Under the pieces are notes generated by a model. That model saw only the letters and a list, made by a program, of their open reading frames with translations, made no database searches and was not told the origin of the DNA. A stretch of DNA of 63,075 nucleotides, filler included, from Diploschistes diacapsis (taxonomy: Eukaryota): the NCBI GenBank assembly GCA_023645945.1. It is 35 parts of 35 records of this genome, joined end to end, with 100 filler letters (N's around TTAATTAATTAA, not from the genome) between each part and the next. Parts side by side here need not be neighbours in the genome. Positions count along the whole stretch, not along the records: positions 58,066 to 59,243 come from JALAIB010003710.1; 34 more parts are not named here. One strand, given 5' to 3'. Below are positions 12,901 through 59,618 of this stretch, one piece after another. Position numbers and translations under genes: made by a program. Positions within the stretch are counted from its first letter, which is position 1; each line of letters starts with the position of its first letter.

Positions 12901-13636
12901 TGGTAAGCAGCGGCATCTCCCACGCCGCGATCCGCATGTACTCCCTGATCTCCCTGTGCTGCTCCAGGTGGCCGTGTCCCAGGCTCGTCATGTCGTCCCC
13001 CTCAAACGTCTCGTCCTCGTCCCCCGCGTCCAGCTCGTCGTCCTCGCCCATGCCCATGAACCCGGGCTTCTCCTTCCGCCGCCGCTCCCTCGGCGGCATC
13101 ACCAGCTCCTTGCGCGTCTCGCGCACCGCTTCCGCCAGCGCCGCGTTGCCCGCCGCCCGGTACGACGCCACGGCCTGCCGCGCGTTCGGCGGCGGCTGCT
13201 CCAGGAACGACTGCCACTCTTCGTCGGAGATCTCGTCGGCCGTCGCGAGCGAGATGTCGTCGGCGGCGTCCTCGTCGAGCGAGAAGAGGGACGGAGGGGC
13301 CGCTTCCGACTCGGGGAAGCTGTCGGGCTCCGTGCGCGCCAGCGGCTCCAGGTCGCTGTCCGCGGAGGTCGCGGACGATTTGTCGATCTGGTGGTGCAGC
13401 TCTTCCAGGTCTCTGGCTGCGGAGTCGGCGGCGTCGGGGTCGGCTTCCGAGTTTGGGAGTGCGGACGGGGGTTCTTGGGCGCCCTTGGGCGGTGACGAGG
13501 AGGAGTCGGCGCGGTGGATCTGCGAGGCGTGGAAGGGGCGGATGCATTGTGCGCGGGGACGAACGGCAGCTCGGGGCCGGATGCGATACGAGGTTCGGGT
13601 TGCTGTTAGGCAGATTCTGTTGAGTGCTGACGCCAT
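12901..13636 (-). CDS. RSM24: Mitochondrial small ribosomal subunit protein mS35/Rsm24, first exon (rest lies off the contig)
   Basis: Arg-rich presequence MASALNRICL..PFHAS; DDMTSLGHGHLEQHREIREYMRIAAWEMPLL motif; GTACGT donor at 12900. Confidence 0.8.
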
Positions 13637-13934
13637 GGCTGTTATGGCTCGCGCTGAGTTATCGAACTTTCTACCGAGAAGCGTGGTTCGATAGGTATGA
13701 TGGAAGCTAGAAATTTTGATGGTCCGTGCGCATAGCTTAACTGCTCGGCAGCCGCAATGGGTCGCACTATCACCGAATTCAGGGTGCATGTTGAACTTTA
13801 TCAAAAACTGCTCAGCAACGAGTTATGACCAATTGAATAATATCGCCTCTTCAAAGCACAAACTCCATATTCCATTCTTCTATTTTCATCCGTGATACTT
13901 CCCATAGGAAAGGCTCTCTGAAAACTGATCCAAC

Positions 13935-15628: not shown

Positions 15629-15918
15629 TTTTTCTTGCACCTAGAACTCCAGCAATTTCCAGAACAGTGACGAGGGAACTGAGCCCCATCTGTGTTTAGA
15701 ATACCTTTGATTGGATATAGAATGCTTTCACCTTCGGATAGAGGAATCCATCAATGGCGAGATCTTGTGCCATAAGTTTGGGGATATTGAGAGCCTGGTC
15801 ATAGGCGGCTGTGTGAGCAATGATCTCGCACTTTGATCTTGAGGGTGAGAAGGTATAAGCTGTCAGGAGTTCTTCTGAACACAACTTAAGAGCTTATTCG
15901 AGATCTAGCCATCCTTTC

Positions 15919-17125
15919 TCATGGGTATTCTAGCCAACTATCCCACTCTTGGCCGAGATAGTCCACAATAATGCCCAATATGCACGGCCCTGCGTTCCCA
16001 ACCTGCCACATATTCCTCCCATAATGCAGCAACAAGGCACAATACCCCAGCAAGACCAGGGCTTCGGGCCGTTTGGCCGCCAACAAGCCTGTAAACTCTG
16101 GAGGCGCTGGCATCGGCCATGGGAAGATCACCTGGTAGCGGTTGCAATGCTTCTCCTTCTCCGCCAACACTGCATCGAACCCGACCTGCATGTACTTGAT
16201 CGCTACTCGACACGCTTCCTTGCCATCTCTCCCCGGCCCGTCCGCGCCGTCTACCGGCTCTCCTTGGTCCGCTGGCAGTGATTGCCTCTCGGCGGCCGCG
16301 AGGTGAACCCCGAGCTCCACGACAGGATCGGCTCGAGCTCTGACTCCATCAGCAACGGTCACACGGTGCAGGCTACGGTATGGATGCCTCTGTGCAACTC
16401 CAGGCACTGCATGTAATGGGTCATGAATGCTTCTAGCCCGCCCAGATCCGGCATTGCGAGCATGTGGGCAAGCAAATGATGCCCTAGGATCGACGAGAAG
16501 AGGAGTACAGCGACGCAGTTGGGCTGGTCAATCTCGCTCCAGGCGGCTCTGAAGAGCGAGACTGTGCGGGTTTGCAAGGCGACGGCCTGGTGGAGGTAGG
16601 AGGCCGAAGATTCAGGATGCAGGAATGCTAGATGGCGGGCGGACAAGGCGAGCAGCTGATGCAAAAGATACGGCGATTCGAGACCCGTCTTCAGGCCAAA
16701 GACAAGGTCGGCGGAGTAGGTGCCGGCGAGCTTGACGTCGGGGAACGTCCCTTTATCACGGGTCAAGTGGATGAGAAGTTCCATATGGTTGAGGTTGATG
16801 GCATCCTCAATGGTTGGGTCGTGATGGTTATTGAAGATTGCACGGCCCGGCGAGCCGAGATGAGACTGGGAGGTGGCAGTTGGTGGGGTGACATCGGATA
16901 GGGTGACAGCCTCTTGGCTGTGGTTGTCGCCTGGGTTTGTGGACCGCTCAGGAGGAGAGGTGCTCGATGTAAAGAAATTTTCCGGCGGGCTCGGGGATGC
17001 ATAACTGCAAATCCGCTCGCACATGGTGCAAAGGAGACATACAGGGCGACCTCCATCACACCGATGGTTTGGAAAGACTGAAGATCAGCATCAGAGCATA
17101 TTACCTTGACATCCTGTCGCTTTGC
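15919..17125 (-). pseudogene. Upc2-like Zn(II)2Cys6 transcription factor pseudogene
   Basis: Half cluster CDGGRPVCLLCTMCERICSY; PYLLHQLLALSARHL and PEALVLLGY motifs; TGA at 16359-16361 where W is expected; frameshift near 16260; acceptor reads CGG. Confidence 0.8.
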
Positions 17126-17463
17126 TATTTAATCAAGATTAGCAGTTGCCCAAGAGGAATAAGGGGTAAGCGCAGAGAGTTAGGCGCGTTCCCCGTGACT
17201 TGCTTAACTAATACGCGTTAATTCTGTCAAGACAACGTCCTTTGTACAATTGTATTACTAAGCCTAGAACCGAACGACCAAAGGTCTAAGTTATCAGCAG
17301 TCGTCTTCACCTTCGACAGCCATTTCTACTGCATTTTAAAGAAAGCCCAGGAAAGGTTATTAATCATCATTCCATTGCATTCTGCTTCCAGTACTTTCCT
17401 ATCTCTGTAAAGTGCTTTTCACTTGTTTGTTCTTACAGAGAGCTACGCAAATCCTCGTAAGTT

Positions 17464-18190
17464 ATGGCAGCCGAAGAAAGACAGCCCAAGCTCTGCTTTG
17501 TAACTATTGGAGCTACTGCGAGCTTTGACTCGCTCATCGAAGCTGTGCTGGATATTAGATTTATTCAAACTCTACGAGATGCCAGATACTCTGAGCTACG
17601 AGTCCAACATGGCAAGCAAGGCAAGTTAATGTTCGACGAATTCGTCAAGACGCACAGGAGGGGCCGGCATTCAACCGGCGATGAACTTATCGAAGGCGTG
17701 GTAGTCGGAGGCTTCGATTACAAGCGTCGGGGTCTTGCAGAGGATATGCGCCAGGCTAAAGGTGGTATCGACGGGCATGTGGAAGGCGTCGTTATTAGCC
17801 ACGCCGGTGAGCTACCATCGACTCACCTAGGCTGCGGGTTAAACTGAGAGTGAACGGTAGGAACTGGCTCGATTCTGGATGCTTTCCGTGCCAACGTGCC
17901 GCTCATCGTCGTGCCCAACACTGGTCTCTTGGATAACCATCAGCAAGAGCTCGCGGATGAGCTTGCACGCCAAAGATATGTAGTGGTCGGCAGGACAGGG
18001 TAAGAACGATGCGTCTTTTGCCTGCAGGAGCTGACCACGCTCGGTCAGTGGTCTCTCGGCCAGTGTCCTCGAGATTGAGGAACAGCGTCGACATCGGAAG
18101 CCGTGGCTCCCTTTGAACCACAGGGACGGTTTGACTCCTAGCAAGCGACTAATGGCAGTTCTTGACGAGGAAATGGGATTTGTGGACTAA
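17464..18190 (+). CDS. ALG13: UDP-GlcNAc transferase subunit (GT28 C-terminal); exons 17464-17806, 17861-17999, 18049-18190
   Basis: [44 protein letters not shown]-terminal LDEEMGFVD. Confidence 0.93.
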
Positions 18191-19562
18191 GCTGAGATCA
18201 GTTACATGATAGCATGCTTTTGAAAGTCTTGTTATATCGAAGTAATTCCCTGCCGATCTGTTATACATCCCTGCGCTGCAGCCAAGCACAATTGTCATGC
18301 CCTTGGCAGAGGACCCAATATCGTTTGAAAGCATAGATTCCATAGGATAAGGCACCCGGCAACAACACCTCGTCTCGATGTGTCGATCTCTAGCATGCGT
18401 AACGGCAAACCAGGCGTTTTATCTACAGCTCCCTAGTCGGTTCAAAGGTTCGGAGGTAGGTTGCGACAAGCTTTGCACCATGCGGTTGCAGGACGCTTGG
18501 GTCTTGGGAATGGCGATATGTCCTAAAGATAGCTCAACAGGTACCTGGGGTGCACGGGTCCAACAATAGATCAGCATTACAGCGTTGTCTCTGGTCTCTG
18601 TTTAGACATCATCGCGTCAGGAATGAAGTCCGGAGAGGGTGCGCTGAATGATCGGCTTCTATAACGTCAGTGCATTATACACAAGTAACGTCTGGATATT
18701 TTGATTTCAGGACTTCCTGTGTTCAAATTTCGCATGAAGATGTGCTCCCTCCGCATCTGGAACTGTTACAACGTGCATCTCGTCTGCCACCGGTAAGTTG
18801 GGATTTGTGACTTCATCCAACTTGTGGCATCTTACTATGAATCGTAGCATCTCTGAGATGTCATGATCACACGAAGATCTATTTCCCCTGCAAAAGACCA
18901 TCAACAGCTATTCCTAAGTCTTTCAAGTCTCGGTGAAAGAAAACTCGAATCGCACAACAGCCGGAATCAGGACTTTACACCGCGGCGGAACCTCTTCCCT
19001 GGATGGTTGTCCTCAATCGGGCGAACAAAATAGATGCCCATGTCAACACTGTCGTCAACCATGGCAGCGTTTGACAATTGAATCCTACGGGCGTATGCGG
19101 ACAGCCGCATATCAGGCTCGAAAAACTAGGCGAGGTGAGATGAAAAATTGAAATTATCTCCCTAGGAGGATTCTATGGCCACTCATTACTTTGTTGTCGA
19201 TAAGTATGATGGTTGAAATCTTCTCGTCAGTGAATGTGGTTTATCTTTGGTAGCCTGAGCTTTCATCATCACATGAGAAGTTTACGAATGGAGGGCAAGT
19301 CCTTCTTTACCAGTCCAAAAGCTACTGTCACTATCCAATTTTACTCTCAGACAGGCAAAGATGTCAACTTTACAATTTCCAGCAGTGGGTATCATTTCCC
19401 AGATGCCCGTGGGTTCCCTTATGTTTCCTGTATATATGTATCAGACTCCCGCTAAACTTTAGTTTCCTTTTATCCCCTCCAAAGCGTTCGGCTAAAGGCT
19501 ATAGATACTAGGTTTTGTTAGCTTTCTGTCCGTGTCTTGTCACACCTGTTTCGTCTAACATT

Positions 19563-21080
19563 ACGAGGGAACAAAGAACTTCTCTCTCATATCTGGCTAG
19601 TCTGCTAGTCTACTCCAAGTTATAGCACAGTCTTCTGGATCCAACCAGAGCGGTGACTTGCCACCATACTCATCCGGCTCGTTAGGAGGCACCGAGGCTC
19701 TGCTTGGAGCTGATGGCAATCCTTTCAATCCTCTCAATCCAGTCGATACAGCAGCTGCGAGCGATCCTCAATATGTGCCAGAACAAAAAGAGTCTTCCAC
19801 GCCAGGCCTATACCTAGACTTCGAACAAGCAGACCAACCTCAGCCTGTACGGGTACCTCAGGAGGCTCTGATCCTGGACATCGTAAGCCAAGTGAGATTC
19901 CTGACATTACTAGCGGCTGACGCAATTACTGGCAACTCCTTCTATGATCAACAGAACAGTGACCTCTCCGCCCCGCCAGACAGTGATGCTGACGATACAT
20001 CCAACTCTAAATGGCCCATGGGCCTTAGCCACAACCGGCTAGGACTCAACAGCGCAGGTTGGGCGCGGCAACAGAACACCGACGTCTTCCCCGCCGCCAC
20101 CGCCATAGCTAGCGTCGACATGCGCCTCGAGCCCCACGACTACGCGAACTCCACTGGCACAGAGCCGCCGAGTGGTCTCTCATCCTCAGCGGTAGCGTCC
20201 GCATCGCGGCTATGAACGAGAACGGCCAGTCCTTCGTCGACGACCTACAGGAAGGCGATGTCTAGTTCTTCTCGTCTGGCGTCCCGCACTACATCCAAGC
20301 CGGCCACCAAAGGGTCGAATTCTTGCTCATCTTCGACCAAGACTCCTTTTCAGAAGGCGCCACCTCTCTCGTCTCCGAGATGCTTCTTGGCAATCCCAAG
20401 TCCGTCATAGCCAAGGACTTCCGCACCGACGTTCTCCGCCTTCGCTAACCTCACCATCGACCAGCGCTACATCTTCCTGGACACCGCCTTACCGCACAAC
20501 ATCTCCGAGCAGAAGGTCACCCGGCCCCGCCGGCGCGCTGCCCAAATCCGACTCGTACTCTTATCACTGGTCACAGCAGCAGCAGCTCGAAGTGGACGAC
20601 GGATCCGTCAAGATCCTGGACCCGCAGACCTTCCCCATCGCCAGCTCCTTTTCCTTAGCCCTCGTCACGCTCAAGCCCGGCGCTATGCGTGAGCTGCACT
20701 GGCACCTCACATCGGACGAGTGGGACTTCTACCTGCAGGGCAGAGCGCGCCTGACCACCTTTTCCCCACCGCAAAGCTCGCGTACCTTTGACTTCCAGAC
20801 CGGCGACGTCGGCTACGTCGAGAACACGGGGGCCGAGGACGTCGTGTTTTTGGAGGGTCGTGCAGGCGCCGCGGTATGCGGATATCTCGGTCGCGCAGTG
20901 GCTCGGGCTTACGCCCAGACAATGGTTAAGGATACGCCGGGTTTGGGGGAAGATTTTATTGATAAGAAGCCGCAGTACGAGCAGCTTATTATGTAAAGCG
21001 AACGGTACGGTAACGAACTTTGGTAGCTATGCGCCGCCGGGTGGCGAGGAAGTTGGGCAGGAGGCGAGGAAGAAGATCAA
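19563..21080 (+). pseudogene. oxdC: Oxalate decarboxylase (bicupin) pseudogene; ends approximate
   Basis: KWPMGLSHNRL, GWARQQN, two RELHWH motifs; frameshifts near 19852, 20143, 20855; TAG at 20263; second-domain His segment deleted. Confidence 0.88.
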
Positions 21081-21393
21081 AAGGGAGTTTTTACGGCCAA
21101 GTGCTTCGCAATTCTGCACATGTATGTCACGGTTCCTTTTGTTGTGTATATTTAATGTCGAGCCTTCATATGTTACTCGATGTGTCATCTGCGGGATCCA
21201 AATCAGAACACTTTGTATCTGAACAACCACATCGTCATATCATCTACTTGTACAAAACCATTGTGCCTATTGCCGTGCTTCCGCCAATCATGATGAGCAC
21301 ATACCTATTCCATAGTAATAACACATTCCATAGTCATATCTGGTACATGTAGGCGTTAGTTGGCCCCACGTCTGCCTCCGACATCCAAGCACA

Positions 21394-23219
21394 TCACAGC
21401 TTTGCCCTCCGATCCAGGTACTGTTTTATTCCCACAGCGACTGTAACAACGAATTCGGAAGTATGTCAGCCCATGATCCCCACGAACGGAGTCGAGTAGA
21501 TGAACAACGATGCAAGGGAAACAATGAAATTGCTTCTCCCACCTTCAGGGGGAAGAAAAGGGGCAAGAACGAATGAAGCAGACAACAAGCAAACGAACAA
21601 AACACAGCACAACTCGTGATCACCACAAGACAAAACCAAAAGCAACCACTCACCCAGCAAGACTACCCCCAAACTCCACCCCTTCCTCTCAAACAACCAC
21701 TCCCAAATCCTCACCCTCACCCCCCCCTCCCGATCGAAATTGGGCGTCGTGCTGCTCATCCCCCTAATCTGCTTCATCTTATGATTTGTATACGGGGGGT
21801 ACCTGACGGCCAACAGTCTCTCCGCCCAGCCCGGCGTCGTCGTCACCGTCCTCTGATGCGTAAAACAGTCAAAACTCGCCTTCCCCCTGTACGCGCCCTG
21901 GCCCGACTGGCCGACGCCCCCAAACGGCAGCATATGATTTCCCGCGTGGAAAATGGTGTCGTTGACCGTGGCGCCCCCCGAGCGCAGGCGGCCGAGCACC
22001 TTCTCGACCTCGGCCTTGTTGCCGAATGGATACGCGGCCAGGGGCGTGGGGTCGACCTCGTTGGCGACGCGGATCGCGTGGTCGAGGTCGTCGACCGCCA
22101 GCAGCGGGAGCAGCGGGCCGAAGTGCTCGTCCGCCACCAGCGGGTCCGTGGCGTCGGCCACCTGCACGACCGTCAGCTCCATGAAGCGCGTGCCCTCGTC
22201 CATTTTGCCGCCCAGCAGGATCTTGCCGCGCGTGCTGTCGAGGAGGGACTTGAGGCGCTGCCAGCCTCGTGCCGTGGCGATCCGGCCGAGATCTTTGGAG
22301 GCGGCCATGCCGTCGGGGTAGAACTCGGCCAGGCAGGCGCCCAGCTCGGAGACGAGGGCCGGCAGCACGGCGCGGTCGACGAGCGTGTAGTTGTGCGCGA
22401 TGCACGTCTGCCCTGCGTTCAGCGCTTTGCCCCAGAGCAGGCGGCGCGCGGCGAGCTTGACGTCCGTGTTCCGCGTGACGATGGCCGGGTTGCGCCCGCC
22501 CAGCTCGAGGGTGACGGGGGTCAGGGTCTCGGCGGCCTTGCGGGCCACGATGCGGCCGACGGGGACGCTGCCGGTGTAGAAGATCTTGTCCCAGCGCTGG
22601 TCGAGGAGGGCCGTGCTTTCGGGGATGCCGCCCTGGACGCACGCGTAGCACGACGGCTCGAGCACGGACATGATGCGGCCGACGACGGCGGCGACGTGCG
22701 GCGCTTGCTCGCTGGGCTTGACGACGGCGGTGTTGCCGGCGGCGATGGCGCCGACTAGCGGGCCCAGCGCGAGCGAGACCGGGTAGTTGTATGCGCCGAG
22801 GATGAGCACGGTGCCGAGGGGCTCCCGCTTGATGCGCGGCGACATGGGCCACAGCGTGATGGGGAGGTCGGACACGCTGCCGTCTTTCATCCATTTTGGT
22901 AGGTGTTTGCAGGCGAATAGTATGTCGCTCTTTACGAAGTCCGTCTCGCTCAAATATACCTCGAACATCGGCTTTCCTAGGTCTTTGGCCAGGGCTTCCA
23001 GAAGGGCGGCCTCATTGTCGTGCAGTCTGCAGAGCGTTAGCGCTTGCTTGCGCTCAAGTCGCTTACTTAATCGTACCCCCAAAACAGCTTGCGAAGCTGC
23101 TGAAGTCGGAAGCCAATGGGCTTCGTGACCTGGGTGTTGAAGGCTCCGCGCAGGCCATTGACAAGAGGCTCGATTTGCTCAGTGGGCGTGTGCTCGAACG
23201 GGGGCAGTGACTCCGCCAT
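21394..23219 (-). CDS. HFD1: ALDH3-family fatty/apocarotenoid aldehyde dehydrogenase (HFD1/CarD-like); exons 23219-23077, 23026-21654, 21440-21394
   Basis: AYNYP, FYTGS, TLELGG, NAGQTCIA, EHFGP, PFGGVG; hydrophobic C-terminal segment; spliced end KQYLDRRAKL. HFD1 versus CarD/YLO-1 orthology unresolved. Confidence 0.88.
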
Positions 23220-24725
23220 GGCGACAAGGTGCGACTAGAAGAAACCTCTTCGTTGTGCAACTAGATATATTAATATTATTAACAGAAAACTTCAGCAGAT
23301 GGTAGTCGGCACAACAGCTTGTTCTGGCCTCTCTCGGCTTCGGGGTTGTTGCATATGTAGGTTAGGGTGGTAGGACCGAGGTTAGATAGAGCTATCCTAC
23401 TCGGTTGAGTTCTTAGTGTCATTCCATACGGGCAAAGCCCAATATGGTCCAGTGGAAAGCATATAGAAGTGGTTTGCGCTAACCACTGAGCCGAATTGGT
23501 AGCCGTACAAGAGATCGCCGTTCATCACATATCTTTCATAATCCCAAATTTGCATTGGCTCAGGTTGGAGCCGTCTACATCTACAGTAGGTACACAAAGA
23601 TATCACATTCAGCCCTTGAATGAGTGTCAAACTGGAAGCCTGAAGTACAGCAAGTGTTCGAGTAAGCTACAGAACTATGTCGCTCGCATAGCCGCCAATC
23701 GATTATCTATTGGGTATTTTGTTGCTCCTGCCTGAGTGCAAAGAAGCTCCAGCCTGCTGTGGATGGTTTTTGCTTTGACCTTGTGCTTCAGATTGTTGCT
23801 GTTATCGTGCTTGAACAGGTTTCTATCAGCGCGAGTTATAGTAGCAACACGACGCTCTCAACGTCTCAGATCGAAAAGCAGGTAAGGAAAAGTTTTCGTT
23901 ACATAGCATCTTACTTATCTACCTCCATCTGCGCGCTTTTATTTGACTCGCTCAAGATATTGTTTATTATTGATTTACTATTCGCTATTGCCGCTGTGGT
24001 TGACCCGCCTCCCTAAGAGGGCAACTACTCGATATAGGCCAGTGATAGCACCGCCGTCTTGGAGAATTGGCTTACATGCATCTCCAATTGCATCTGCACG
24101 TTATACCAGTGCCAGATGTACTTCGATAATGCCATCCATTGTGTAACGCCTTGGCCCGCGCAGATTTGTATTGAGGATGAGCCTTGATTCAAGGCAAACG
24201 TGGCGCGCCCTTCATAAGAGCCGGTGCGCGTTATCGAGAGTAGGACTCCTGGTATCAGAGATTCAACGCACATTATCGGCTGGCATTGACACAGTCCATC
24301 GCGTTGATGAATGGAAACGACGAGATCAGGGAGTTTATTCTTGCAGCAGCTACGGGACACTCTTTAGCAGTGGGCTGCTAAGGGGATACGAGAATCTGTT
24401 CTGGGAGACTCGCGAGAAAGACAACCCTACCGGGGTGCAACTTGACGTTCTATTGCTCAGAGTATGCTGGGTGGAATGGAAGGGGCATATTTAGACACGC
24501 TCCCCGCGTAGTCCTGGCAGTCCACTTTGATTAGATAAAATTGCAAAAAGGGCAACACAAGGTTCGGACAATGAAATCAGCATCAAAGGCCTGTTACTGT
24601 TCTAATCCAGCGTAGATTCATCGTCAAATCAGAACATCGTGACTGCTCAGCAAGCGTGATAGAAATGACTCAGCATTAACGGCACTGTGATTGGACAGAC
24701 GTCAACTCACGGTCAATGCGCCTAC

Positions 24726-24758
24726 TCGCGTCGAGGCCGCGTCCGCGTCCGCACGCGA
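24726..24758. promoter_or_regulatory. Cluster of four ACGCG (MCB-like) cores upstream of POL2
   Basis: TCGCGT, CCGCGT x2 and ACGCGA in 33 bp, ~200 bp before the ATG; fits MBF G1/S control. Confidence 0.55.
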
Positions 24759-24958
24759 TTAATATATCGTTTGAAGCTCCGCTATCCTATACTGAGCACA
24801 TATGTTCACTATTCACTGCATGTGCTCTGCGGCTGTCATTGTTGTGTATTCTTGTCCGACCGTTGCCTTTCCATTCTTGTTCTCTCTTATTTCAGCTATG
24901 CATCTTAGTTAATAAGCAAATCTCCTCTTTTCCGAAGTCTGAGAACCAGGTCGTCAAC

Positions 24959-27900
24959 ATGCCTATGCGGAAACCGGACCGCCGGTACGGGAGGGGACAG
25001 TCAAGTTATCGTTCAGCTGCCTCTTCATCAGCACCGCGGCGGACGAAAACAATCGAGGCTTCCGCATTGAGATCATCAGAGGCCACTTCTCAAGATGAGA
25101 GGATCCAGGCGACACGGCTTGCGCACTCAATCGATGAGCGCATGAATTTCGCTCGGTACGAGTCTGGGCGCAAGAGAGTTGGATGGCTTTGCAACATGCA
25201 CAGTACAAGTGTTGAGGACTCGAAGGTTCCTGGCGGACGCGCCGCTGTCGACTACTACTTCCTGGAAGATGATGGAGGCAGCTTCAAAGCAACTGTTGAA
25301 TATGATCCTTACTTTCTGGTCGCAGTGAGAAGAGGGAAGGAAGCCGAAGTCGAAGAGTGGGTAAAGAGGAAGCTCGAGGGCGGCATAAAAGGCGTGAGGC
25401 GGATAGAGAAAGAGGATTTGAGCATGCCGAACCATTTGCTGGGCTACAGGCGTACTCTTCTCGAGCTGTCGTTTGCGAACGTCAGCGACCTTCTGGGCGC
25501 AAGGCGGGACATCTTGCCTATAGCGGAGAGGAACAAGCTCAACATGAACGCAATGGATACCTACGCAGAAGTGGCGAGCGCGAACGCGGGATTTGACTTT
25601 TACGAAAATGAACGAGATAACGAAACACGACCTAACGGCATTACGGACGCAAGCGATTACATCGTTGATATTCGAGAATATGACGTGCCATATCATGTCA
25701 GAGTGGCAATCGATAAAGGTAGGGATCCGTCGATAGGCTAGGAATATTCTAATGTTAACAGACATTCGCATTGGGAAATGGTATACGGTGGAAGCAAAGC
25801 ATGGTGTTATCAGTCTTACGTGCCTCGAGGAGAGGCTGCAACGAGCAGATCCTATTGTTCTAGCTTACGATATAGAGACAACGAAGCTACCACTCAAGTT
25901 TCCGGATTCGAGCATCGACCAAATCATGATGATATCTTATATGATTGATGGCGCAGGATTTCTTATCACGAACCGCGAGATCGTGTCGGAAGATATTTCG
26001 GATTTCGAGTACACGCCAAAGCCTGAATATGAAGGGCCATTCATTATCTTCAATGAGCCGGACGAGAAAGCTGTCTTGGAACGATTCTTTTTGCACATTA
26101 AGGAGGCCAAGCCTACGGTTATAGCCACCTACAACGGTGACTTCTTCGACTGGCCGTTCGTGGAGGCTAGGGCCAGCGTCCACGGAATCGACATGTACCA
26201 AGAAATTGGCTTCCGCAAGAACAGCGAGGACATATACCAAAGCGACTATTGTGTTCACATGGACTGCTTTGCCTGGGTAAACCGAGACAGCTATCTTCCA
26301 CAGGGTAGTCGAGGTTTGAAGGCAGTCACAACGGCCAAGCTCGGATATGATCCTGACGAGCTAGATCCTGAACTCATGTTACCGTATGCAAGCGAAAAGC
26401 CTCAAGTCCTGGCAGAGTACTCGGTCTCAGATGCGGTCGCCACATACTATCTCTACATGAAATACGTCCACCCATTCATTTTCTCGCTCTGCACGATCAT
26501 TCCTCTTAACCCAGACGACACACTACGAAAAGGAACAGGTACGCTTTGCGAGATGTTGCTCATGGTGCAAGCCTACCAAAAGAACATTGTTCTACCAAAC
26601 AAGCACAAAGAGCCCAAGGAGACCTTCTGGGATGGACACTTGTTGGAGTCCGAAACTTACGTGGGTGGACACGTTGAGAGTATTGAGGCAGGCGTTTTCC
26701 GAAGCGACATTCCTTATAATTTCTCCATCGACCCTAGCGCCATTAACGAACTGCTCCACGACCTGGATACTGCTCTCCGATTCAGCATCACGGTAGAAGA
26801 AAAGAAATCAATGGAAGATATTACCAACTATGAGGAGGTCAAGAACCAGATTGTCCAAAAGCTAGAGGATCTCAAGAAGACACCGAATAGGCACGAGAGG
26901 CCCTCAATCTATCATTTAGATGTTGCATCCATGTATCCCAACATCATGACTACCAACCGTCTACAACCGGACTCCATGATCAAGGAATCCGACTGCGCAG
27001 CGTGTGATTTCAATCGGCCTGGTAAGACTTGTGATCGAAGAATGCCTTGGTCATGGAGAGGTGAGTATCTTCCAGCTCACAAGAACGAGTACAACATGAT
27101 CCGACGAGCTCTGGAAAGTGAAAGATTCCCTGGCAAGTATCCAAACAGTCCTGCTAGAAGCTTTGACGAGCTCGCTATCGACGAACAGGCAAAGATGGTG
27201 AAGAAACGATTGCAAGATTACAGCAAGAAGATCTATCATAAGATCCATGAGGCGAAGACAGTAGAGAGAGAAGCCATCATCTGCCAGCGTGAGAACCCGT
27301 TCTATGTTGACACGGTGAAGAACTTCAGAGATCGTCGGTACGATTTCAAAGGAAAACAAAAGGTCTGGAAGAACAAGACGGACAGTTTAAGGTCCTCCGG
27401 AGCACCAGCTGCTGAGGTTGACGAAGCCAAGAAGATGATTGTTCTCTTTGAATCCCTGCAGCTCGCCCACAAAGTCATTTTGAATTCCTTCTACGGCTAT
27501 GTCATGCGAAAGGGCTCGAGATGGTATTCTATGGAGATGGCCGGAGTCACATGCCTCACAGGCGCCCGCATCATTCAGATGGCCAGGGAGCTTGTCGAAC
27601 GGATTGGTCGACCTCTCGAATTGGATACTGATGGCATCTGGTGTATGCTTCCAGCGACCTTCCCAGAGAACGTTGCCTTCACGTTAAAGAATGGGAAAAA
27701 GCTGCCCGTCTCATACCCTTGTACGATGCTTAACCATCTCGTCCACGGCAAGTTCACTAATCACCAATACCAGACGCTTGTGGACCCGAATACTTTCAAA
27801 TATGATACCCATAGTGATAACACCATCTTCTTTGAGGTGGATGGGCCATATCGTGCAATGATTCTACCGACTTCGAAAGAGGAAGACAAGAACCTTAAGA

Positions 27901-30900
27901 AGCGATATGCGGTCTTCAACGATGATGGCTCCCTCGCGGAGTTGAAGGGATTCGAGTTGAAGCGAAGGGGAGAGCTAAAATTGATCAAATTCTTCCAGAA
28001 GCAAATCTTCAAGTTTTTCTTGGAAGGTACAACTCTGGCTGAGACATATGCAGCGGTAGCGAAGGTAGCAAATAGATGGCTGGACGTACTCGATTCAAAA
28101 GGATCCAATCTAGCAGACGAAGAGCTGGTCGACCTCATTTGCGAAAACAAAAGCATGTCAAAGACAATAGCAGAGTATGGCGCACAGAAATCGACCGCTA
28201 TCACAACCGCCAAGCGCCTCGCGGAGTTTCTAGGTCAGCAGATGATCAAGGATAAAGGCCTCAACTGCCAATACATCATCGCATCGAAGCCAAGGAACAC
28301 GCCAGTCACTGAACGAGCTATTCCCGTCGCAATCTTCTCGTCCGAAACTTCAATCAAGCGACACTTTCTCCGTAAATGGATGCGAGAAGACCCCGCGGAC
28401 ATGGACCTTCGAACCATCCTCGACTGGGACTACTATCGCGAGCGTCTAGGGTCAGTCATCCAGAAGCTAATCACTATTCCCGCAGCATTGCAACGCATTC
28501 GAAATCCTGTTCCTCGGATTGTACATCCTGAATGGTTACAGCGCCGAATTAACATCAAAGATGACAGATTTAAGCAGAAAAAGATGACGGATCTGTTCGA
28601 GAAGAAGCCTCTGTCGGAGATTCCCTTGAACGTGGTTGATCACCGTCTGCCGACCGATCTAGAGGACTTCGGAGGCACTACCATGCCAAAGAGCAAAGCT
28701 CAAGCACTGAGAATGTCCCAGAAACGAAAGTCGCCTGAGCCCGCAGCTCCGGAAGTTATAGACCCTTACGCCAGCCTTCCAAAAGTCATGCCTGATCCTT
28801 CGGTGGACTACAAAGGCTTTTTGAAGTATCAAAAGCAGAAGTGGGCAATCCAAAGACAGGCTCGCAAGCGCCGGCGTCAACTATTTGGTGAGCGAAGTAC
28901 TACTGCTTCAGACCTTGGTGGATATTTCCGCAATCAGTCTGCTCTGCTATTCACAAACACATGGCAGCTTCTGCAGCTTCGAGAGTCTGACAGCCCAGGT
29001 ATAGTTCAAGCATTCGTTCTAATTGGTCAAAAAGTTCAAACCCTGAAGATCAAAGTTCCACGGCAGGTATATCTTAATTTGAAAGGGAAAGAGCTACCCG
29101 ACGTTACCATTGATCAGTGCACCGTTGAAAAGGTTACTCATTCACTACCAAATGGCCACCTTTCTGCCCACCTGTTCAAGCTCACTATGCCGGAAGAGGT
29201 CTTTGTTGATGACGCAGAAAAGATCTCCTTGATGTTCAACCACACAAGCGTTGAAGGTGTATACGAGACTCAAGTCCCGTTAACGGTGCGGGCCATGCTC
29301 CAGCTTGGTAGCTCATGCACGTTTGACGAAACGCAACAAGGAGTGCTTGGACGTGGTCTTGAACACGGCTTCGAACTCTCAACCCTGAGAAAGGCCGTAA
29401 CCAAGGATCCCTATCTTTCCCGAGCCAGCCTAGGGTACTATTTCCTTTATCACGTCGCCTCCGGCGAGAAGGAGATTTTTGCTCTTTTCTCGACCAACAA
29501 GTCTGAGGCTAGCATTGTCATCATGAATCGGAAGAAAGACAACCAGGGACTTCCAAATGCTGATAAGATTTATGCCGACCTGCGAGCGCGAAAGATGCAG
29601 GAACACGGGAATGAAGTGGCACAAATGAACTTCGAATATCAAGATAGCATCCATTTCAAGATCTCGCAGGTGTCTACGAGACGCAAAGCATACATTGAGC
29701 TTAGCAGTGCGCTGAAAAAGATGCAAAAAGATGAGACCAGGCCGATGACCATGGTGATGCAGACACTCCACTACAGAACACTCACGCAGGAGATCCCAAT
29801 GCTTAAAGACCTTCCTATAGTCTCGCTCAAGCTCGATGCAACTGATAGCCAGCTACCCTCGCTTGGATGGCAGAGTGTAATAATCAGGCGCTTGGTGACG
29901 AACTATCTGTCCTTTGGCTCTTGGATGACACACCTTATAGAGCTTGCCCGATATGGAGGTATACCCTTGTGTAATCTTCAAGGAGATGATAACCGCTTCC
30001 TGATCGATATCGCTTATGCCCGCCGGTTGCAGAAGAACAACGTTGTGTTATGGTGGTCTTCGGGATCCAGGCCGGATCATGCGGGCTACGAAAAGGACGA
30101 CATTGTGGGACCCTTGGAGAAGATCGAAATGCCGGCCATCAACAACCCAGGGACATACTCGTCTGTTTGCATCGAGCTGGAAGTCAGGAATCTTGCGGTC
30201 AACACCATTCTCACTTCTTCGTTGATCAACGAAATGGAGGGAAGCGAGTCCATTATGTTGAATCCTTCCGGCAGTGAAGAGGGCGACGGCACCGGTGTTT
30301 TGTATTCAGCCTCAGCGTTTGCCTCTGCCGGTATCGTCACGCTCCGAGAAATGGTAAAGGCTTGGTGGATGGAGGCATGCAAAGGCAGCCCCATGGCAGA
30401 CAATATGGTGCAGCACCTGATTCGCTGGGTCGAATCGCCTACCTCGCATCTCTATGATCGATCCCTTTACCATTATGTGCAGATGATGTCTCGGAAAGCC
30501 TTTCAGCAGCTGATGACCGACTTTAGAAGAGTTGGCTCCCACATCGTCTTTGCTAGTCCGACGCGCCTTCTCCTGCAAACCACCAAGGCAGAGGTCGGCA
30601 ACGCCTACGCCTACAGCCAGTACATCCTCAAGTCGATCGCAGCCAAACCCCTGTTTAACTTCCTAGATCTGAGCATCAAAGAATACTGGGACTACCTCGT
30701 CTGGTACGACGACTACAACTACGGCGGCAAGGCCACCCAAGAAGTCATCGAAGCCGACGCCCAACCCCTCGACACCGTCATGCACTGGCAGCTCGCCACC
30801 TTCCTGCCGCCCCTCTACAAGCCCATTTTCGACGAATGGGTCGTGACCTTCATCGAACTCATGCACTCCCTCAAACGCCCCTTGCCCACCCTCAACTCCC

Positions 30901-31754
30901 CCAGCACCCCTCGCCTAACCCAGCTCCCCATACGCGAACTCACCTCCACCACAACAAGCTACGACACCGTCCCCCAACCCACCCTCGACGCCCTAGCCAC
31001 GCACATAAGCAAACCCCTCCGCAAAAAACTCGTATCCCTAATCTCCCAGTACCGCGCCGAATCAACGAACCCGCTGCTCGCCCCAGACCACGCATACCCG
31101 GCGCTCCCCGGCTCGCACCTCGACCTGACCTCCACGCACCCAGTCCTCCACCTGACCAAGTCCCTCATGCACGTTTTCGGCCTGGATAGGTCGCTCAACC
31201 TGGCCGTGCGCTCTCTGCGCAAGGATCTCCTGGCCCTCTTCGACGTGCGAGAGTTCAGCGCCGCGGGCCGCTTCGAGGACCCAAGCCGCAGGCTGAGCCT
31301 GGAGTGGTCGTGTGCCGAGTGCACGCTCGTGCGCGAGCTCGAGCTGTGTCGGGACGAGGACCTGCTGCCTCTTTCCGCGGAAGCAGCGGGAGGCGCTGAG
31401 ACCACCCTTGCTACTGCTGCAGGTGGAGCCATCGGGGGAGGAATGCCGAGAGAGTGGCGGTGCCAGTACTGCGCGCATCCCCTGCCGCGTAACGCGATCG
31501 AGGAGCATCTCATCTCCGAGGTGCAGGCAATGGTGGTGGCGTGGGCGACGCAGGATTTTAAGTGCGGAAAGTGCGGCGGCGTCAGGGTGGAGGCGTGCGA
31601 TTTCATGGAGCATTGTCCGTGCTCCGGGATCTGGGTGCCGACGGTGAAGATGGCGGGGGTTAAGGAGCGGTTGGGGGTGCTGGATGCCGTGAGTCAAGTG
31701 CATGGGATGAGGATGTTGGCGGGGGTGGTGGCAAATGTTTTGGAGGGGATCTAG
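24959..31754 (+). CDS. POL2: DNA polymerase epsilon catalytic subunit; exons 24959-25718, 25762-31754
   Basis: ExoI DIETTK, DVASMYPN, ILNSFYGY, ELDTDG, C-terminal CysA/CysB motifs; 43-nt GT-AG intron. Confidence 0.98.
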
Positions 31755-32619
31755 GGGGTTAGGGATTTAGGGAGGAGGATTTGGGCGGGTTGGTGGGTGG
31801 CGATGATGGTGTTTTTTTTGGGAGTGTGTTATGGATGGTTATGCTTCGATGAATGGAGCAGTATTGATGTCTTTTTACAATGGGCGTGGTGGTATATTCC
31901 GTGCCTTTTTGGAATGGGGGATTTGCTTGGATTTGTGGCCCATTGCGTCGGCGTTTTGAATGGCATAGCATTGCGCGTTGTTTTGAGGAAAGCTTTGATA
32001 TCACAACCAAGCACTTACACACTAGAAACAGCTGCTCTTCAGTGATACAGTCCGTCTAAGCTAACAGTGATGGAGCATTCCGCAGCAGCACCCGAGGAAC
32101 CATAGCAAAGTGGGCCATAACGCTCTCTCGACACAGCGCGAGAAACGAGAATCGGGCTCAAAAGACGAAACCATCGCTCCACCCTCTCACAGATAATAAC
32201 CCGAACAGCACGCATAGGCCCTCACAACCCAAGAACGCGGCCAAAACAGATATATAACTTCCTGCCACCCCCTCCCTTGCACCCTCCTCCTATCCCTCCA
32301 TCCTAGTCACTCACTACCAGGCCCTACTCCCGCCCCACCCCCCCCCACCACCCCCCACCCCCCCCCNNNNNNNNNNNNNNNNNNNNNNNNNNNNNNNNNN
32401 NNNNNNNNNNTTAATTAATTAANNNNNNNNNNNNNNNNNNNNNNNNNNNNNNNNNNNNNNNNNNNNGATTATAGCTAAATAAGAACGAAAATCTATTTAT
32501 GTATATACAATATCAAGCGGCATCGTTATAAATGTCGTTTATAAGAGCGAGATCGGTACTACCTGTTACCAACAATACCCCAAGCGATCTACCATCAAGC
32601 CTAACGATTACTACATTAA

Positions 32620-36311: not shown

Positions 36312-36433
36312 CTACGTACCTATATATAATATAATAAGGAAACAGTGCGTTCGGGGTTACTGAAAAGCATTATAATTAATCTTTTGGCTCAGTGGGATAG
36401 CGCTACCTATTAGGCACTACCCCCGCTGTTATA
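36312..36433 (+). mobile_element. LTR family C, 3' part
   Basis: Matches the TRIM LTR (GGGATAGCGCTACCTATTAGGCACTAC). Confidence 0.85.
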
Positions 36434-36662
36434 AGCGAAATGATTTTCCGATTAATTAAATAAAGAAATGGCGGCGGCTAAGGATCCGAATATCAGTATC
36501 GTACCGACCGGTCTCATTTCTAATATTCTAGAACTGTCATTAATGTCGCCGTCGCAAATAAATTATAAATTAAGAGATGATACGCTGTTAACGACGTAGG
36601 ATGAAACCACTGCTTCGGTTGAGACATGAAAACTTATTTAAGTATGTTTTCTTTCATAATTA

Positions 36663-36733
36663 GATCTAATAGCTTAGTCGGTAGAAGATGTGTTTCTATT
36701 ATAAGGTCGCTGGTTCAAGTCCAGCATAAATCA
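36663..36733 (+). other. Degenerate tRNA-derived sequence with Pol III A and B boxes
   Basis: TAGCTTAGTCGGTAGA D-arm/A box; perfect T-arm GCTGG-TTCAAGT-CCAGC; imperfect acceptor stem; no clean anticodon arm. Confidence 0.65.
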
Positions 36734-37663
36734 ATAAACGCAAATATAGAAAAACGATTTCTTACATTTATATCCTGGCTTCTTTTTGTTTCCTATAAGC
36801 CCGGATCTTTTACTTATAGTTCTTTAGATTTTCCTTAGATTCCGATAAGTTTTAATCCGCTAAATATCCTTTCTATTTAATACAGAATCCTCTAGAACCG
36901 TGGTCCAAAATCTTCTCGATTTTATACTCATTCTCATTATCCGATTCGAAATAAAAGGATTTTTATAATAGGATATTTAAATATACTAATTCGAGATATC
37001 TAGCGTATAATACTGTATAGATCGTCACGTTCTTAAATAACTTAAGACGGTAACTAACTCGTTTGGTTTCGTCTAATATATTAAGTTATTTATCGATAAA
37101 AAAGAATTCGGTCTTAACGTGATCGAGGTTCTCAAAGAATTTACGTGTTCTAAAATTATTTATGTATAAAAATACAATATTTTTCTCTTTCAACTAAGGA
37201 TTCTTCTTTAAGATCTTAATTTTATTAATATCTTTTAATGCCTTATCGTTAAGTGGCGAAATCTTTTAAATCTTTTAATTTCTTTATCTTTGTTATTAAG
37301 GTAGTGTTCGATATATAATAATTATTTAATTTAATTCTTTATATTTTAATTAATTTATTACCGTAAATACTATTTTAAGGTTTAATTTATTCTTTCTGTT
37401 TGACAGTTTATCTATAGATAATAAATATTTAAGTTTTTTAATTTCGTGCTGAATGCTTTTATTATAATTTTTTAATATCTTGACGTAAAGAGNNNNNNNN
37501 NNNNNNNNNNNNNNNNNNNNNNNNNNNNNNNNNNNNTTAATTAATTAANNNNNNNNNNNNNNNNNNNNNNNNNNNNNNNNNNNNNNNNNNNNGATTTACC
37601 CGACATATAACGCGTACGATCTAGTAAAAACGGATGGATTATTAATAAAATTAATTTACATTA

Positions 37664-38492
37664 ACGTATATGCATAACGAGCGGACACTCATAACGAACC
37701 GACATCCTTCTCGATTCGTACGAGTTATAATTACATTTACGCAATCAATTCTTACGATAATTCATTATATTAACTATTAATATCTTCATTAAAAGCTATA
37801 GATTTTATTTCGTAAGTTCGCATATTATATTTAAATTAATTATATTTATTATAACGTCGTACGCGCAATCCGATTTCCTTCGTACGACTTTTATTTTTAG
37901 ATATATCAGCTTCTTTATACGAATTTCGACTTTTAAAGATTATAATACGATTATTTTTAATACGTTAAACAATCCTTCAACTCATACGCGCGTTTTTTTA
38001 ACCTTTTTTCGTTTATTAACTACCTTATTCGTCGTATGAAATGTCTTGATCTCGATTTTAAGAATTATTATTTAGCGCATAATCGTCCACGTAAATAATC
38101 TAAATAATAAAAACCTATTCTCGATTACCGGGTTGTTTCGTACGAGATCTATTTTTGCGATCTAAAGTAGTTACGACCTTTATATAACGTGTTTCACAGT
38201 CAGCTCGACCACCCCCAAAGCTCGGCCACCTCACATGACGATATTCATCATTCTTCCGGTTTTTCTCGATAATGGCCGCTTCGCATTAAAATAACTCGAT
38301 ATTATTAAAATCGGATATTAACGATTATTTATAGGTTCTAAATTTTTAATAATATACCAGCATTCGAACGACCGTTCGCGTGTTTAAAATTTCTCGATCG
38401 ACCGTTATGGATCGACTTAATAAAAAATAATCCAATTTTAATAATCACGAATCGACTTAAATCCTTTTAAATCTAAAAAAAGATATTAATAC
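37664..38492 (+). mobile_element. Nested pogo/Fot1 left ends with RIPed transposase N-termini
   Basis: TA-ACGT termini at 37664 and 38187; F.RTT HTH-like remnant. Confidence 0.7.
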
Positions 38493-43996: not shown

Positions 43997-44523
43997 GTTT
44001 TAAATAGTTCTAAAAATATTTTAATCAATATTAATATTTTTTAATAATCGATTTTACGTTGAAATCCCATTTTAAATATTTTTTGTCTTTGTATGACATT
44101 TTATACTTATCTTGATCCGACCGGCCGCGCATTTCGAGCTAAGCGTATTAAATTGATCATATCGCGTATATCGTTATATCGCGACGGAAAACTATATTCG
44201 ATTAAATTAATCGCACGTTTAAAAATCGTTTTTTCTTTTAACACGATTAAATTTATTAAATTAATCAAGATATCGTGTCTTAAAGTACGACCATCGCGTT
44301 AAACAATAGACGTCGTACGAGGAATCTTATATATTTAAAATACGCGTTTTATGTTAAAATTTAGGTTTTATTTGATAGCCTGAAGTACTATTATGATTCT
44401 ATTTTTAATTAAAGATGATTCCATAATCGTATGTGTAGAAATATGATATAAAAGTTGAAAGTTCGTAAAATCGGGTGGGAGGTGTCCGCTCGCTATGAGT
44501 GTCCGCTCGCTATGCATACACGT
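43997..44523 (-). mobile_element. pogo/Fot1 left TIR plus RIPed transposase N-terminus
   Basis: ACGTGTATGCATAGCGAGCGGACAC terminus with internal repeat; MESS..NRII.VLQAI..IYKIPRTT; copy at 52621. Confidence 0.8.
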
Positions 44524-45434
44524 TATTCTATTAAGAACGATTTGTTTCTTGTTTTTAAATAGGCTTTTTATATAATTATTGGTCCAAAAAACGTACGAAT
44601 AGGTTTTAAAGCTATTAAATTTGTTCCGTACGATATAAAAAAGATAATTAATAATCTAGGTTTTAAATTTTATACGTTTACATTTTCGAATGCTCGTTTA
44701 ACGAGTTCTATATTTATTAATTTAAATACGCCCCGTACGGCGAAAGATGCTTTACGAGATTTTATAAATCTAAAATCTAGAATTATTAAATATTAAAATA
44801 ATTATTTTATATATTTATACGAGTTAATTGATATATAGTTCAAAAACATTTTTAAATTAACGTATAAAATAATAGTTTCTAAAATCGAGATTAAGATATT
44901 TCGTACGATAAATAAAGCATTTAATAAACGAAGAAAAATTAAAAAAACGCGCGTACGAGTTAAAGAATGTTACGATCCAAGTACCAGACTTGGCACGTCC
45001 CAGCTTTCTTATATATAGGCCAGCCGCGGTGACACGGGTCACGTGACTAATAGATGTCTAATAATAAATGTCTGTCGGGATAAATCTGCTCGGACAACTT
45101 TTTATTAATAATAACGCTATCGCGACAGCTTCGCTGTCGACGACTAATTATTATCTTGAATTATATATAAAAACGTNNNNNNNNNNNNNNNNNNNNNNNN
45201 NNNNNNNNNNNNNNNNNNNNTTAATTAATTAANNNNNNNNNNNNNNNNNNNNNNNNNNNNNNNNNNNNNNNNNNNNGTTATTTAGAGATAATCAGATATC
45301 TTTTTCCTTTTTCTTTTTATATTTTTATAAATAATGTCTTTTTGTCATGTTTAAAGTTTTTAGATCGTAACCTTCTCCTTATCTTTCGTAAGATGTAGAA
45401 GGGTCCTTAAACAAGTCTTTAGGTTGGCCCCTAT

Positions 45435-46796: not shown

Positions 46797-46967
46797 TGTA
46801 ACGCCCAAAGGTGTGCCCTGGGGTTCAGGTCCCCTTGCTGCCACAGCCACGCACCTACATATAGTGTAATAGGGAAACAGTGCTTCGGGGGTTCCTGATA
46901 GCATTGTGTTAGTCTTTTGGCTCAGTGGGATAGCGCTACCCTATTAGGCACTACCCCCGCTGTTACA
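46797..46967 (+). mobile_element. LTR family C variant with a different 5' U3
   Basis: TGTAAC...TGTTACA; 3' ~130 bp match family C; no TSD. Confidence 0.85.
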
Positions 46968-57904: not shown

Positions 57905-58373
57905 ATAGAATCCTATATCTTCTATACGTAGAATATTTGTTCTTTTAATAGCTTTCGTATTATTTNNNNNNNNNNNNNNNNNNNNNNNNNNNNNNNNNNN
58001 NNNNNNNNNTTAATTAATTAANNNNNNNNNNNNNNNNNNNNNNNNNNNNNNNNNNNNNNNNNNNNAAATAATACTTACGTAAATTACGTATATCATTTAA
58101 AAACGATTTCTTTTTTATTTTTAACGGGCTTTTTATAATACAATTATAAATTTGAAAAACGTACGAATAAACTTTAATAACATTAACTTATTTCGTACGA
58201 TATAAAAGTGATAATTAATAATTTAGATTTTAAATCTCGTATATCTACGTTTTCGAGTTCTCGTGCGACGAATTTCGTATTTATTAATTTAAATACGTCC
58301 CGTACGGCGAAAGATACTTTACGAGGTTTTATAAATGTAAACTTTAAAATTATTAAATATTAAAGTAGTTCTT

Positions 58374-58942
58374 TGTAAAAGCGGGGGTAGTGCCTGATAG
58401 GTAGCGCTATCCCACTGAGCCAAAAGACTAACCACAATGCTTTCAAAAACCCCGAAGCACTGTTTCCTATTACACTATATGTAGGTGCGTGGCTGCGGCA
58501 GTAGGCGGCAGATGTGTAACCCCGCAGGCCTTACAACTATCTTCCTTCCCCACAGTGCTGGCCCCCAGCACCTACCACGTCTCATATAACGCCCCGGGTA
58601 TATTGGATATCCTAAACTGTTTATCGCAATTATCTACAATGACTTAAAGGCCCCTGGGCATGTTCATTGCGCTCCCAAATAGATCCACATCTGTAGGCAA
58701 CAATAATGCGCAATTAATTCGATTTATATAGATGATAAGGCTGTGCTCGAACCAACGACCTAAAAACTGAAAGCATAACTGTAACAACGGGAGTAGTGCC
58801 TAATAGGTAGCGCTATCCCACTAAGCTAAAAGATTAATCATAATGCTTTCAGGAACCCCGAAGCACTGTTTCCCTATTACACTATATGTAGGTGCGTGGC
58901 TGTGGCAGTAGGCGGCAGATGTGTAACCCCGCAGGCCTTACA
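58374..58942 (-). mobile_element. Complete TRIM: LTRs 58374-58535 and 58780-58942, 244-bp non-coding interior, TSD TTCTT
   Basis: Two ~162-bp TG..CA direct repeats, TTCTT on both sides, PPT GGGGAAGGAAGA on minus strand; inserted in a RIPed pogo-like remnant whose uninterrupted homologue is near 44790-44830. Confidence 0.93.
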
Positions 58943-59618
58943 TTCTTCTATTTATTTATAGGAGTTAATTAATATATAAATTAAAGATATTTTTAAATTA
59001 ACGTATAAAATAATAGTTTTTAAAACCGAAATGAAAATATTTCGTACGGCAAAATAAAGCATTTAATAAAAGAAGAAAGATTAAAAAAACGCGCGTAGGA
59101 GTTAAAGAATTATTTAACGTTTTAGAAATAATCGGATTGTAATTTTTAAAGATCGAAATTCGTATAAAAGAAGCTGATATGTCTAAAAATAAGAATCGTA
59201 CGAAAGAGGTTAAATTGCGCGTACGACGCTGTAATAAGTATAANNNNNNNNNNNNNNNNNNNNNNNNNNNNNNNNNNNNNNNNNNNNTTAATTAATTAAN
59301 NNNNNNNNNNNNNNNNNNNNNNNNNNNNNNNNNNNNNNNNNNNAATAAATTTAAATCGATATATATTAAATTAATATTACTTTATAAAAAAAATTAACAA
59401 TAAAAAACGCTTCTTAATAATTATAAAAAACGTAAATTAAATAAACGAATTAAATTAAAAAATCGGTTTATATTTAATATAAACGAAGTTCTTAAAATAA
59501 TAATTCGGGTTAAATCGATTCGCATAATTTTAAAACGATTTATAACGCGTAAAAAACGTCGTCGCGTTTTTTAAATCAAGAAAGATAAAGAAGAGAAAGA
59601 TAGATTCAATTTAGATCG

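Follow-up and report, generated by a model that had tools for sequence, protein, structure and literature searches.

A new TRIM family with a putative self-priming signal in a Diploschistes diacapsis assembly

How does an LTR element that encodes nothing, and that lacks the usual docking site for the 3′ end of a tRNA, begin its own reverse transcription? The question is raised by a 569-bp element on the minus strand at 58374-58942 of the window, a 63,075-nucleotide stretch taken from Diploschistes diacapsis assembly GCA_023645945.1. The window is made up of 35 pieces, with a linker of 44 N, TTAATTAATTAA and 44 N between each piece and the next (for example around 58010-58021); 34 of the pieces run in falling order from 1184 down to 1177 nt, and the remaining one measures 19,527 nt (12840-32366). 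Because these are separate pieces joined end to end, the other copies described below lie on other contigs and are not neighbours of the element. The long piece has a G+C content of 52.5% and holds an uninterrupted 2000-aa frame for the DNA polymerase epsilon catalytic subunit (25752-31754, plus strand) and an aldehyde dehydrogenase frame (21469-23082, minus strand), from which we take the DNA to be nuclear and eukaryotic.

Structure and classification of the element

The element is contained entirely in piece 58066-59243 and has the following parts.

58780-58942, minus strand: 5′ LTR, 163 nt, with TGTAA..TTACA ends
58374-58535, minus strand: 3′ LTR, 162 nt
58943-58947, strand not applicable: target-site duplication flanking the element on its 5′ side, TTCTT
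58369-58373, strand not applicable: target-site duplication flanking the element on its 3′ side, TTCTT
58536-58779, minus strand: interior, non-coding, 244 nt
58551-58537, minus strand: polypurine tract GGGGAAGGAAGATAG, 15 nt, 1 base ahead of the 3′ LTR

The two LTRs are direct repeats with TG..CA ends on both and are 92.0% identical by BLAST over a 163-column alignment; of the 163 aligned positions 13 differ, and most of these differences are C>T or G>A. Stop-to-stop frames within the element reach at most 71 aa, and the longest has only a Pfam match below the curated cut-off. We considered a plus-strand orientation and dropped it, since no polypurine tract precedes 58780 and a clean one is present on the minus strand; the element is therefore read on the minus strand. 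Short direct LTRs and a short interior give a total below about 1 kb, the size expected of a TRIM. The insertion is precise and flanked by a target-site duplication, the 569 nt have no coding capacity, and the element carries both a polypurine tract and a primer site, the latter of a self type and not of a tRNA type. The LTR pair, its ends, the TTCTT repeats, the polypurine tract and the lack of a long frame together supply all defining features of a TRIM, and the locus is almost certainly a TRIM belonging to a high-copy family. The family is new. A sequence-only reading of this locus had described a complete 569-bp non-coding TRIM, and we recovered its LTRs, duplication and polypurine tract in place and likewise found no ORF.

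Classical plant and animal TRIMs, including Cassandra, resemble the element in their two short LTRs, short non-coding interior, polypurine tract and target duplication, and also in high copy number and many solo LTRs; Cassandra differs in carrying a 5S promoter in its LTR. The contrast lies in priming, since TRIM primer sites are described as tRNA-type or unclear in two earlier papers (PMC10886601; PMC6934838), whereas the site in the present element is complementary to the element itself.

Mobility, copy number and RIP-like mutation

Four further features of the window bear on the history of the family.

44802-44806 (about), plus strand: paralogous empty site, with the flank repeat uninterrupted across the insertion point
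10864-11028, minus strand: solo LTR on a different contig, belonging to this family, with a 5-bp duplication GAAAC on both sides
36312-36433, plus strand: partial LTR cut by the contig end, no TRIM interior adjoining
46797-46967, plus strand: second-subfamily LTR whose U3 starts differently, without a duplication and with no TRIM interior adjoining

The empty paralogue lies on piece 43997-45176 and aligns without gaps, with a single TTATT where the filled site reads TTCTT, element and TTCTT. Public runs with the element comprise two lichen metagenomes, one rock metagenome and one run of ‘organism A’. Taken with the RIP-like signature described below, these sources suggest a lichen-associated fungus, probably an ascomycete. 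We compared the contigs of three public runs (X1, X2 and X3) with the element. Joints that pass from 58368 directly to 58943, skipping 574 bases with 5 shared letters, occur in all three (two contigs in X1, five in X2 and one in X3). The claim of the sequence-only reading that the element has moved more than once is borne out by the empty paralogue, the 574-base skips and a solo LTR with a different duplication, GAAAC. The LTRs that it had listed at 10864, 36312 and 46797 are indeed present, but as copies on other contigs of one assembly and not as neighbours.

Within the window the interior is single-copy, and many diverged contigs cover it in X1-X3; a T>C change at 58618, for example, is found in 22 contigs of X1, 40 of X2 and 6 of X3. 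Several contigs of the other runs bridge the interior, the site at which the primer binds (PBS) and the 5′ LTR. A single-copy deletion relic, which the sequence-only reading had named among the findings that would refute it, is ruled out by these diverged interior contigs in three runs. When the flanks of the three other LTRs were aligned to the TRIM interior with transitions tolerated, scores were no better than those of shuffled sequence. The second-subfamily LTR differs over the first ~45 nt of its U3 (TGTAACGCCCAAAGG..., 46797-46840, plus strand), and this variant U3 start also appears as loose ends at 58527 and 58912 in contigs of the other runs (10 in X1 and 20 in X2).

The surroundings of the element are far poorer in G+C than the genic piece, at 23-24% in the flanks. 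A RIP index calculated as (CpA+TpG)/(ApC+GpT) gave 1.17 for the element, 0.21 and 0.35 for its flanks and 1.27 for the genic piece. The AT-rich flanks (58066-58368 and 58948-59243) belong to a high-copy, strongly RIP-like repeat that is present in many contigs of X1-X3 and has paralogues in two other pieces of the window (44531-44968 and 37840-38073); no Pfam-recognisable frame was found in this flank repeat. Base changes within the family point in the direction of RIP as well. All seven differences between the 5′ LTR and a five-copy majority are C>T or G>A, as are 12 of the 14 that separate the LTR at 36312-36433 from the majority, and copy variation in X1 comprises 255 transition places and 30 transversion places. 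The earlier statement that the element shows little RIP is accordingly correct relative to its flanks (1.17 against 0.21 and 0.35) and needs qualifying for the 5′ LTR, where seven of seven differences are of the RIP type. Judged by these base changes, the copy is lightly hit by RIP-like mutation, which makes the divergence between its LTRs unusable for dating. The copy at 58374-58942 has either aged or suffered RIP-like mutation, and it is probably no longer active. The lichen and rock metagenome runs contain the family in very high abundance, and it carries far fewer marks of RIP than the surrounding repeat; for both reasons it may be useful as a marker. It may also be a case of small elements slipping under the threshold of fungal genome defence.

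Complementarity between the LTR and the primer-binding site

The features that bear on priming lie at the start of the interior and within the 5′ LTR.

58776-58767, minus strand: putative primer-binding site ATGCTTTCAG, 3 nt (GTT) past the 5′ LTR
58852-58843, minus strand: putative self-primer CTGAAAGCAT, LTR positions 91-100, the presumed start of R
58882-58888, minus strand: TATA-like CATATAG, LTR positions 55-61, a candidate promoter element

ATGCTTTCAG and CTGAAAGCAT are exact reverse complements of each other, and their complementarity breaks off abruptly after 10 nt. CATATAG is the sole TATA-like stretch and lies in the invariant, most conserved part of U3; the LTR word begins 30 nt past it, a position only suggestive of a transcript start. 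These observations reproduce three points of the sequence-only reading, namely a primer site that does not begin with TGG, two exactly complementary 10-mers at 58776-58767 and 58852-58843, and a CATATAG (LTR 55-61) that precedes the LTR word (91-100) by 30 nt.

We asked how often such a match arises by chance by taking words that start 0-8 nt past the LTR and matching them against dinucleotide-shuffled LTRs. A match of at least 10 nt arose in 10 of 20,000 shuffled LTRs (P = 0.0005). When the 223-nt 5′ RNA was folded, the primer:PBS duplex was predicted with pair probabilities of 0.75-0.98. Among the variants listed for contigs of the other runs, no well-supported one falls in the 5′ LTR word or in the PBS. 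The corresponding word in the 3′ LTR of the window reads TTGAAAGCAT, with its first C lost, and that C is present in most copies of the other runs (58446 A>G). It is highly improbable, in our estimate, that the 10-nt complementarity is chance or a functionless leftover and that the element is a dead deletion derivative whose mode of priming can no longer be read. Such an account would be in keeping with the 13 of 163 LTR positions that differ, mostly by C>T or G>A, with the reading of a single full copy and with flanking duplexes of the Tf1 ‘pretzel’ type that are not significant (see below); it conflicts with a probability of 0.0005 for such a match at that place, with a high-copy family whose 10-mers are conserved among the variants listed, and with the lack of any alternative PBS.

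Self-priming from a word in the LTR has precedents against which the element can be compared. Neumann et al. predict self-priming where complementarity of at least 10 bp starts 0-5 bp past the 5′ LTR (PMC6317226), and the TRIM shows 10 nt at an offset of 3 without a tRNA-3′-end TGG site. Two studies state that in Tf1-type priming the RNA must begin with the complementary word (PMC7175516; bioRxiv 10.1101/2022.12.06.519325), and the second describes a ‘pretzel’ in which the primer:PBS duplex is accompanied by two duplexes that pair PBS-adjacent sequence with the LTR downstream of the primer (bioRxiv 10.1101/2022.12.06.519325). In the TRIM, 0.06-0.61 of shuffles gave an equally good upstream-adjacent duplex; the lowest fraction, 0.06, belongs to the less mutated LTR and its 7-bp helix CAGTGGG/CCCGCTG. 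The downstream-adjacent duplex was not above shuffles, of which 0.33-0.41 were as good. For the less mutated LTR copies, an additional short helix is predicted to adjoin the primer:PBS duplex. The sequence-only reading had proposed self-priming in the manner of Tf1; its LTR/PBS complementarity conforms to the rule of PMC6317226, but the two extra duplexes of the pretzel do not rise above shuffles. From the sequence evidence as a whole, we conclude that the TRIM probably primes its own reverse transcription.

The likeness to Tf1/sushi-group Ty3/gypsy elements (Tf1/Tf2/Tj1, Maggy, Skippy, Cft-1, Boty, Grasshopper and Afut1) extends to the lack of a tRNA-3′-end PBS, to a 5′ LTR word of ~10-11 nt that is complementary to the sequence just past the LTR, and to a polypurine tract. 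Tf1 makes a 5-bp target duplication. The TRIM differs in that its 569 bp encode no RT, RNase H, integrase or chromodomain, and in that its duplex spans 10 nt, not 11, with the three-duplex pretzel not clearly formed. By the same rule, self-priming has been predicted for two sets of plant lineages, Copia of the TAR type (Houba, Osr-1) and chromoviruses of the Tcn1 type (PMC6317226); these are autonomous plant elements, in contrast to the non-autonomous fungal element described here. Since Copia lineages are also predicted to self-prime (PMC6317226), and since no autonomous partner was found in the frames and collections scanned, the description as a parasite of a chromovirus in the sequence-only reading is an assumption.

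An element that encodes nothing has to depend on an autonomous LTR element for its Gag, protease, RT/RNase H and integrase, and a replication cycle can be proposed on this footing. Transcription would start in the 5′ LTR, either at CTGAAAGCAT or slightly upstream of it, ~30 nt past the TATA-like box. The RNA would then fold back so that CTGAAAGCAT pairs with ATGCTTTCAG 3 nt past the LTR, a pairing that can be read directly from the two words, and an adjacent U5 helix is predicted to support this duplex in the less mutated LTR copies. The RNase H of the partner would cleave behind the duplexed 5′ word, and the resulting 3′-OH could prime the minus strand, as in Tf1. Plus-strand synthesis would be primed by the polypurine tract. 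Integrase would finally insert the copy with a 5-bp duplication, of which the duplication itself and the precise empty site are visible in the DNA.

We searched the literature for self-priming TRIMs and found no description of one; the only paper listed with both terms, on bivalve TRIMs, proposes none. Self-priming is already common in fungal LTR elements, and a self-primed non-autonomous derivative is therefore expected and not surprising. For the same reason, the wide spread of self-priming among these elements, the TRIM leaves the basic understanding of retrotransposition unchanged. If the family is self-primed, it would mean that self-priming passes to minimal non-autonomous parasites, and the shared primer and PBS would help to locate autonomous partners.

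tRNA-like motifs, host-primed alternatives and the autonomous partner

The first bases of the interior also allow another origin for the primer. GTTATG forms the first bases of the interior, immediately behind the LTR, and CAG stands at positions 11-13; these 6 contiguous bases and CAG match the 14-nt Helenus/Copia iMet-type site GGTTATGAGCCCAG (PMC10886601). Copia-type elements primed by half-tRNAs have a PBS that pairs with the anticodon stem-loop of a tRNA (iMet, Tyr, Ile or Asp). The GTTATG start keeps tRNA-half ancestry or use as a rival account, in which a host RNA primes, most likely a tRNA 5′ half produced by a cut within or close to the anticodon loop, in the manner of copia, Ty5 and fungal Helenus, and the LTR word is incidental or has another role such as PBS masking or long-range folding. 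We consider this account unlikely. The iMet-type match and a 5-bp duplication, which fits Copia, speak for it, but the match covers only 6 contiguous bases (and CAG) where the self word gives 10, and on this account a coincidence of 1 in 2,000 would be needed to explain the self match. The complement CTGAAAGCATAAC also appears to misfit a normal anticodon loop. With a CAT anticodon in CTGAAAGCATAAC, position 33 would be G, and with GAA the loop would differ from that of eukaryotic tRNA-Phe. Priming by the element’s own 5′ word is the reading that we favour.

Two tRNA-like motifs, which the sequence-only reading had missed, lie on either side of the LTR/interior boundary.

58818-58828, minus strand: A-box-like motif TAGCTTAGTGG in U5 of the 5′ LTR, from a motif scan
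58747-58761, minus strand: tRNA-like variable-loop/T-arm motif AGGTCGTTGGTTCGA, B-box-like, 5 nt past the PBS

The motif scan used an A-box consensus and returned 7 matches in the window where 0.39 were expected, five of the seven in LTR copies. All five LTR copies carry the motif, four as TGGCTCAGTGG and the mutated 5′ LTR as TAGCTTAGTGG. The scanned motif agrees with the consensus TRGCY..YGG given in the Helenus paper (PMC10886601). AGGTCGTTGGTTCGA is an exact match that lies on the same strand as the A box, 75 nt past the point where that box starts; even when one mismatch is tolerated, the expectation for the entire window is only 0.11 matches. ARAGORN found no tRNA in the window or in piece 36312-37492, Rfam found none in the whole window at the gathering score or in 58300-59000 at E up to 10, and no acceptor or anticodon stem could be drawn by eye around the motifs. 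The T5 run past the PBS reads TTCTT in many other copies through 58764 A>G, which is carried by 27 contigs in X1 (most of the depth) and by 17 in X2 (just under half); in those copies no RNA polymerase III terminator is therefore present at this place.

Kojima (2024) described Helenus as TRIMs with tRNA-derived LTR sequence, or ‘TRIMp3’, and that paper (PMC10886601) reports fungal members only from rusts and a few Agaricomycetes, most of them with a PBS complementary to the tRNA anticodon loop. The earlier remark that fungal TRIMs are poorly described is therefore only partly true, since the 2024 description of Helenus includes fungal TRIMs whose LTRs are tRNA-like (PMC10886601). Helenus elements span 311-1263 bp and the fungal ones make 5-bp duplications, and the present TRIM is alike in size and in its TTCTT and GAAAC duplications (PMC10886601); it also shares an A-box motif in the LTR, a GTTATG interior start (the half-tRNA-iMet PBS) and many solo LTRs. 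It departs from Helenus in having its B-box-like motif in the interior and not in the LTR, and in showing no tRNA to tRNA finders. Its PBS matches its own LTR, whereas Kojima saw no complementarity between tRNA-like LTR and PBS, and its host is probably an ascomycete, a group absent from the Helenus list given there (PMC10886601). A motif search of the supplement of that paper for a 14-mer of the TRIM and for both 10-mers gave 0 matches. As box A and box B do not both lie in the LTR, as they do in the Helenus consensus sequences compared, we did not file the TRIM under Helenus, and the tRNA-like motifs across the LTR boundary offer a loose link to that group.

These motifs suggest a Helenus-like, RNA polymerase III-driven TRIM (‘TRIMp3’) in which the U5 A box and the leader B box form a tRNA-type promoter that is complete only at the 5′ LTR, an arrangement that could coexist with self-priming and to which we assign a rather low likelihood. 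It would account for an A-box motif in five of five LTR copies, for an exact AGGTCNNNGGTTCGA 75 nt downstream of the A box on the same strand, and for the replacement of the T5 run by TTCTT in many copies, which leaves no terminator there; fungal Helenus TRIMs with tRNA-like LTRs and 5-bp duplications also exist (PMC10886601). Several observations argue against it. Neither ARAGORN nor Rfam (E up to 10) detects a tRNA in the element, attempts to draw the structure by eye gave neither an acceptor nor an anticodon stem, and a T4 run precedes the A box. The A box would start 25 nt past the putative transcription start, and 25 nt downstream counts as far for an A box. The B-like motif lies outside the LTR, whereas the Helenus consensus sequences compared carry both boxes and a T-run inside it, and Helenus is reported among fungi only from Basidiomycota (PMC10886601). 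A stronger form of the idea would make the family the first ascomycete ‘TRIMp3’, with a Pol III promoter split across the LTR/interior boundary, only the 5′ LTR complete and a short RNA that supplies its own RT primer. We hold this form to be very unlikely. Were it true, the element would need neither a host tRNA primer nor RNA polymerase II and would be small enough to largely escape RIP.

Self-priming by whichever transcript still calls for an autonomous partner, and the sequence-only reading had suggested a search for further copies and for such an element. Diverged interior copies were found in X1-X3, but neither the window nor the collections yielded a partner. In the small pieces of the window, 41 of 66 stop-to-stop frames of at least 70 aa were scanned with Pfam and contained no retroelement domain; most of the other 25 overlap scanned frames of the same pieces. 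An LTR 21-mer gave 0 matches in public metagenome, genome and viral contig collections, and a U3 26-mer gave 0 in public metagenome and genome contig collections. Four contigs of X1 and 14 of X2 match only the 87 nt on the polypurine-tract side of the interior (58536-58622) and then diverge, and two X1 contigs join 58622 to 58840. Both kinds of contig could come from longer relatives of the family or from variants of it that carry deletions, and those that share only 58536-58622 offer a lead to the partner, since this is the pattern expected of a longer relative.

One minor feature lies beside another copy of the LTR. About 230 bp downstream of the LTR at 36312-36433, a tRNA-gene-like stretch at 36660-36735 (plus strand), which ARAGORN did not call and which is degraded, apparently by C>T/G>A changes, retains a clear A box, TAGCTTAGTCGG, and a T arm, GCTGG TTCAAGT CCAGC.
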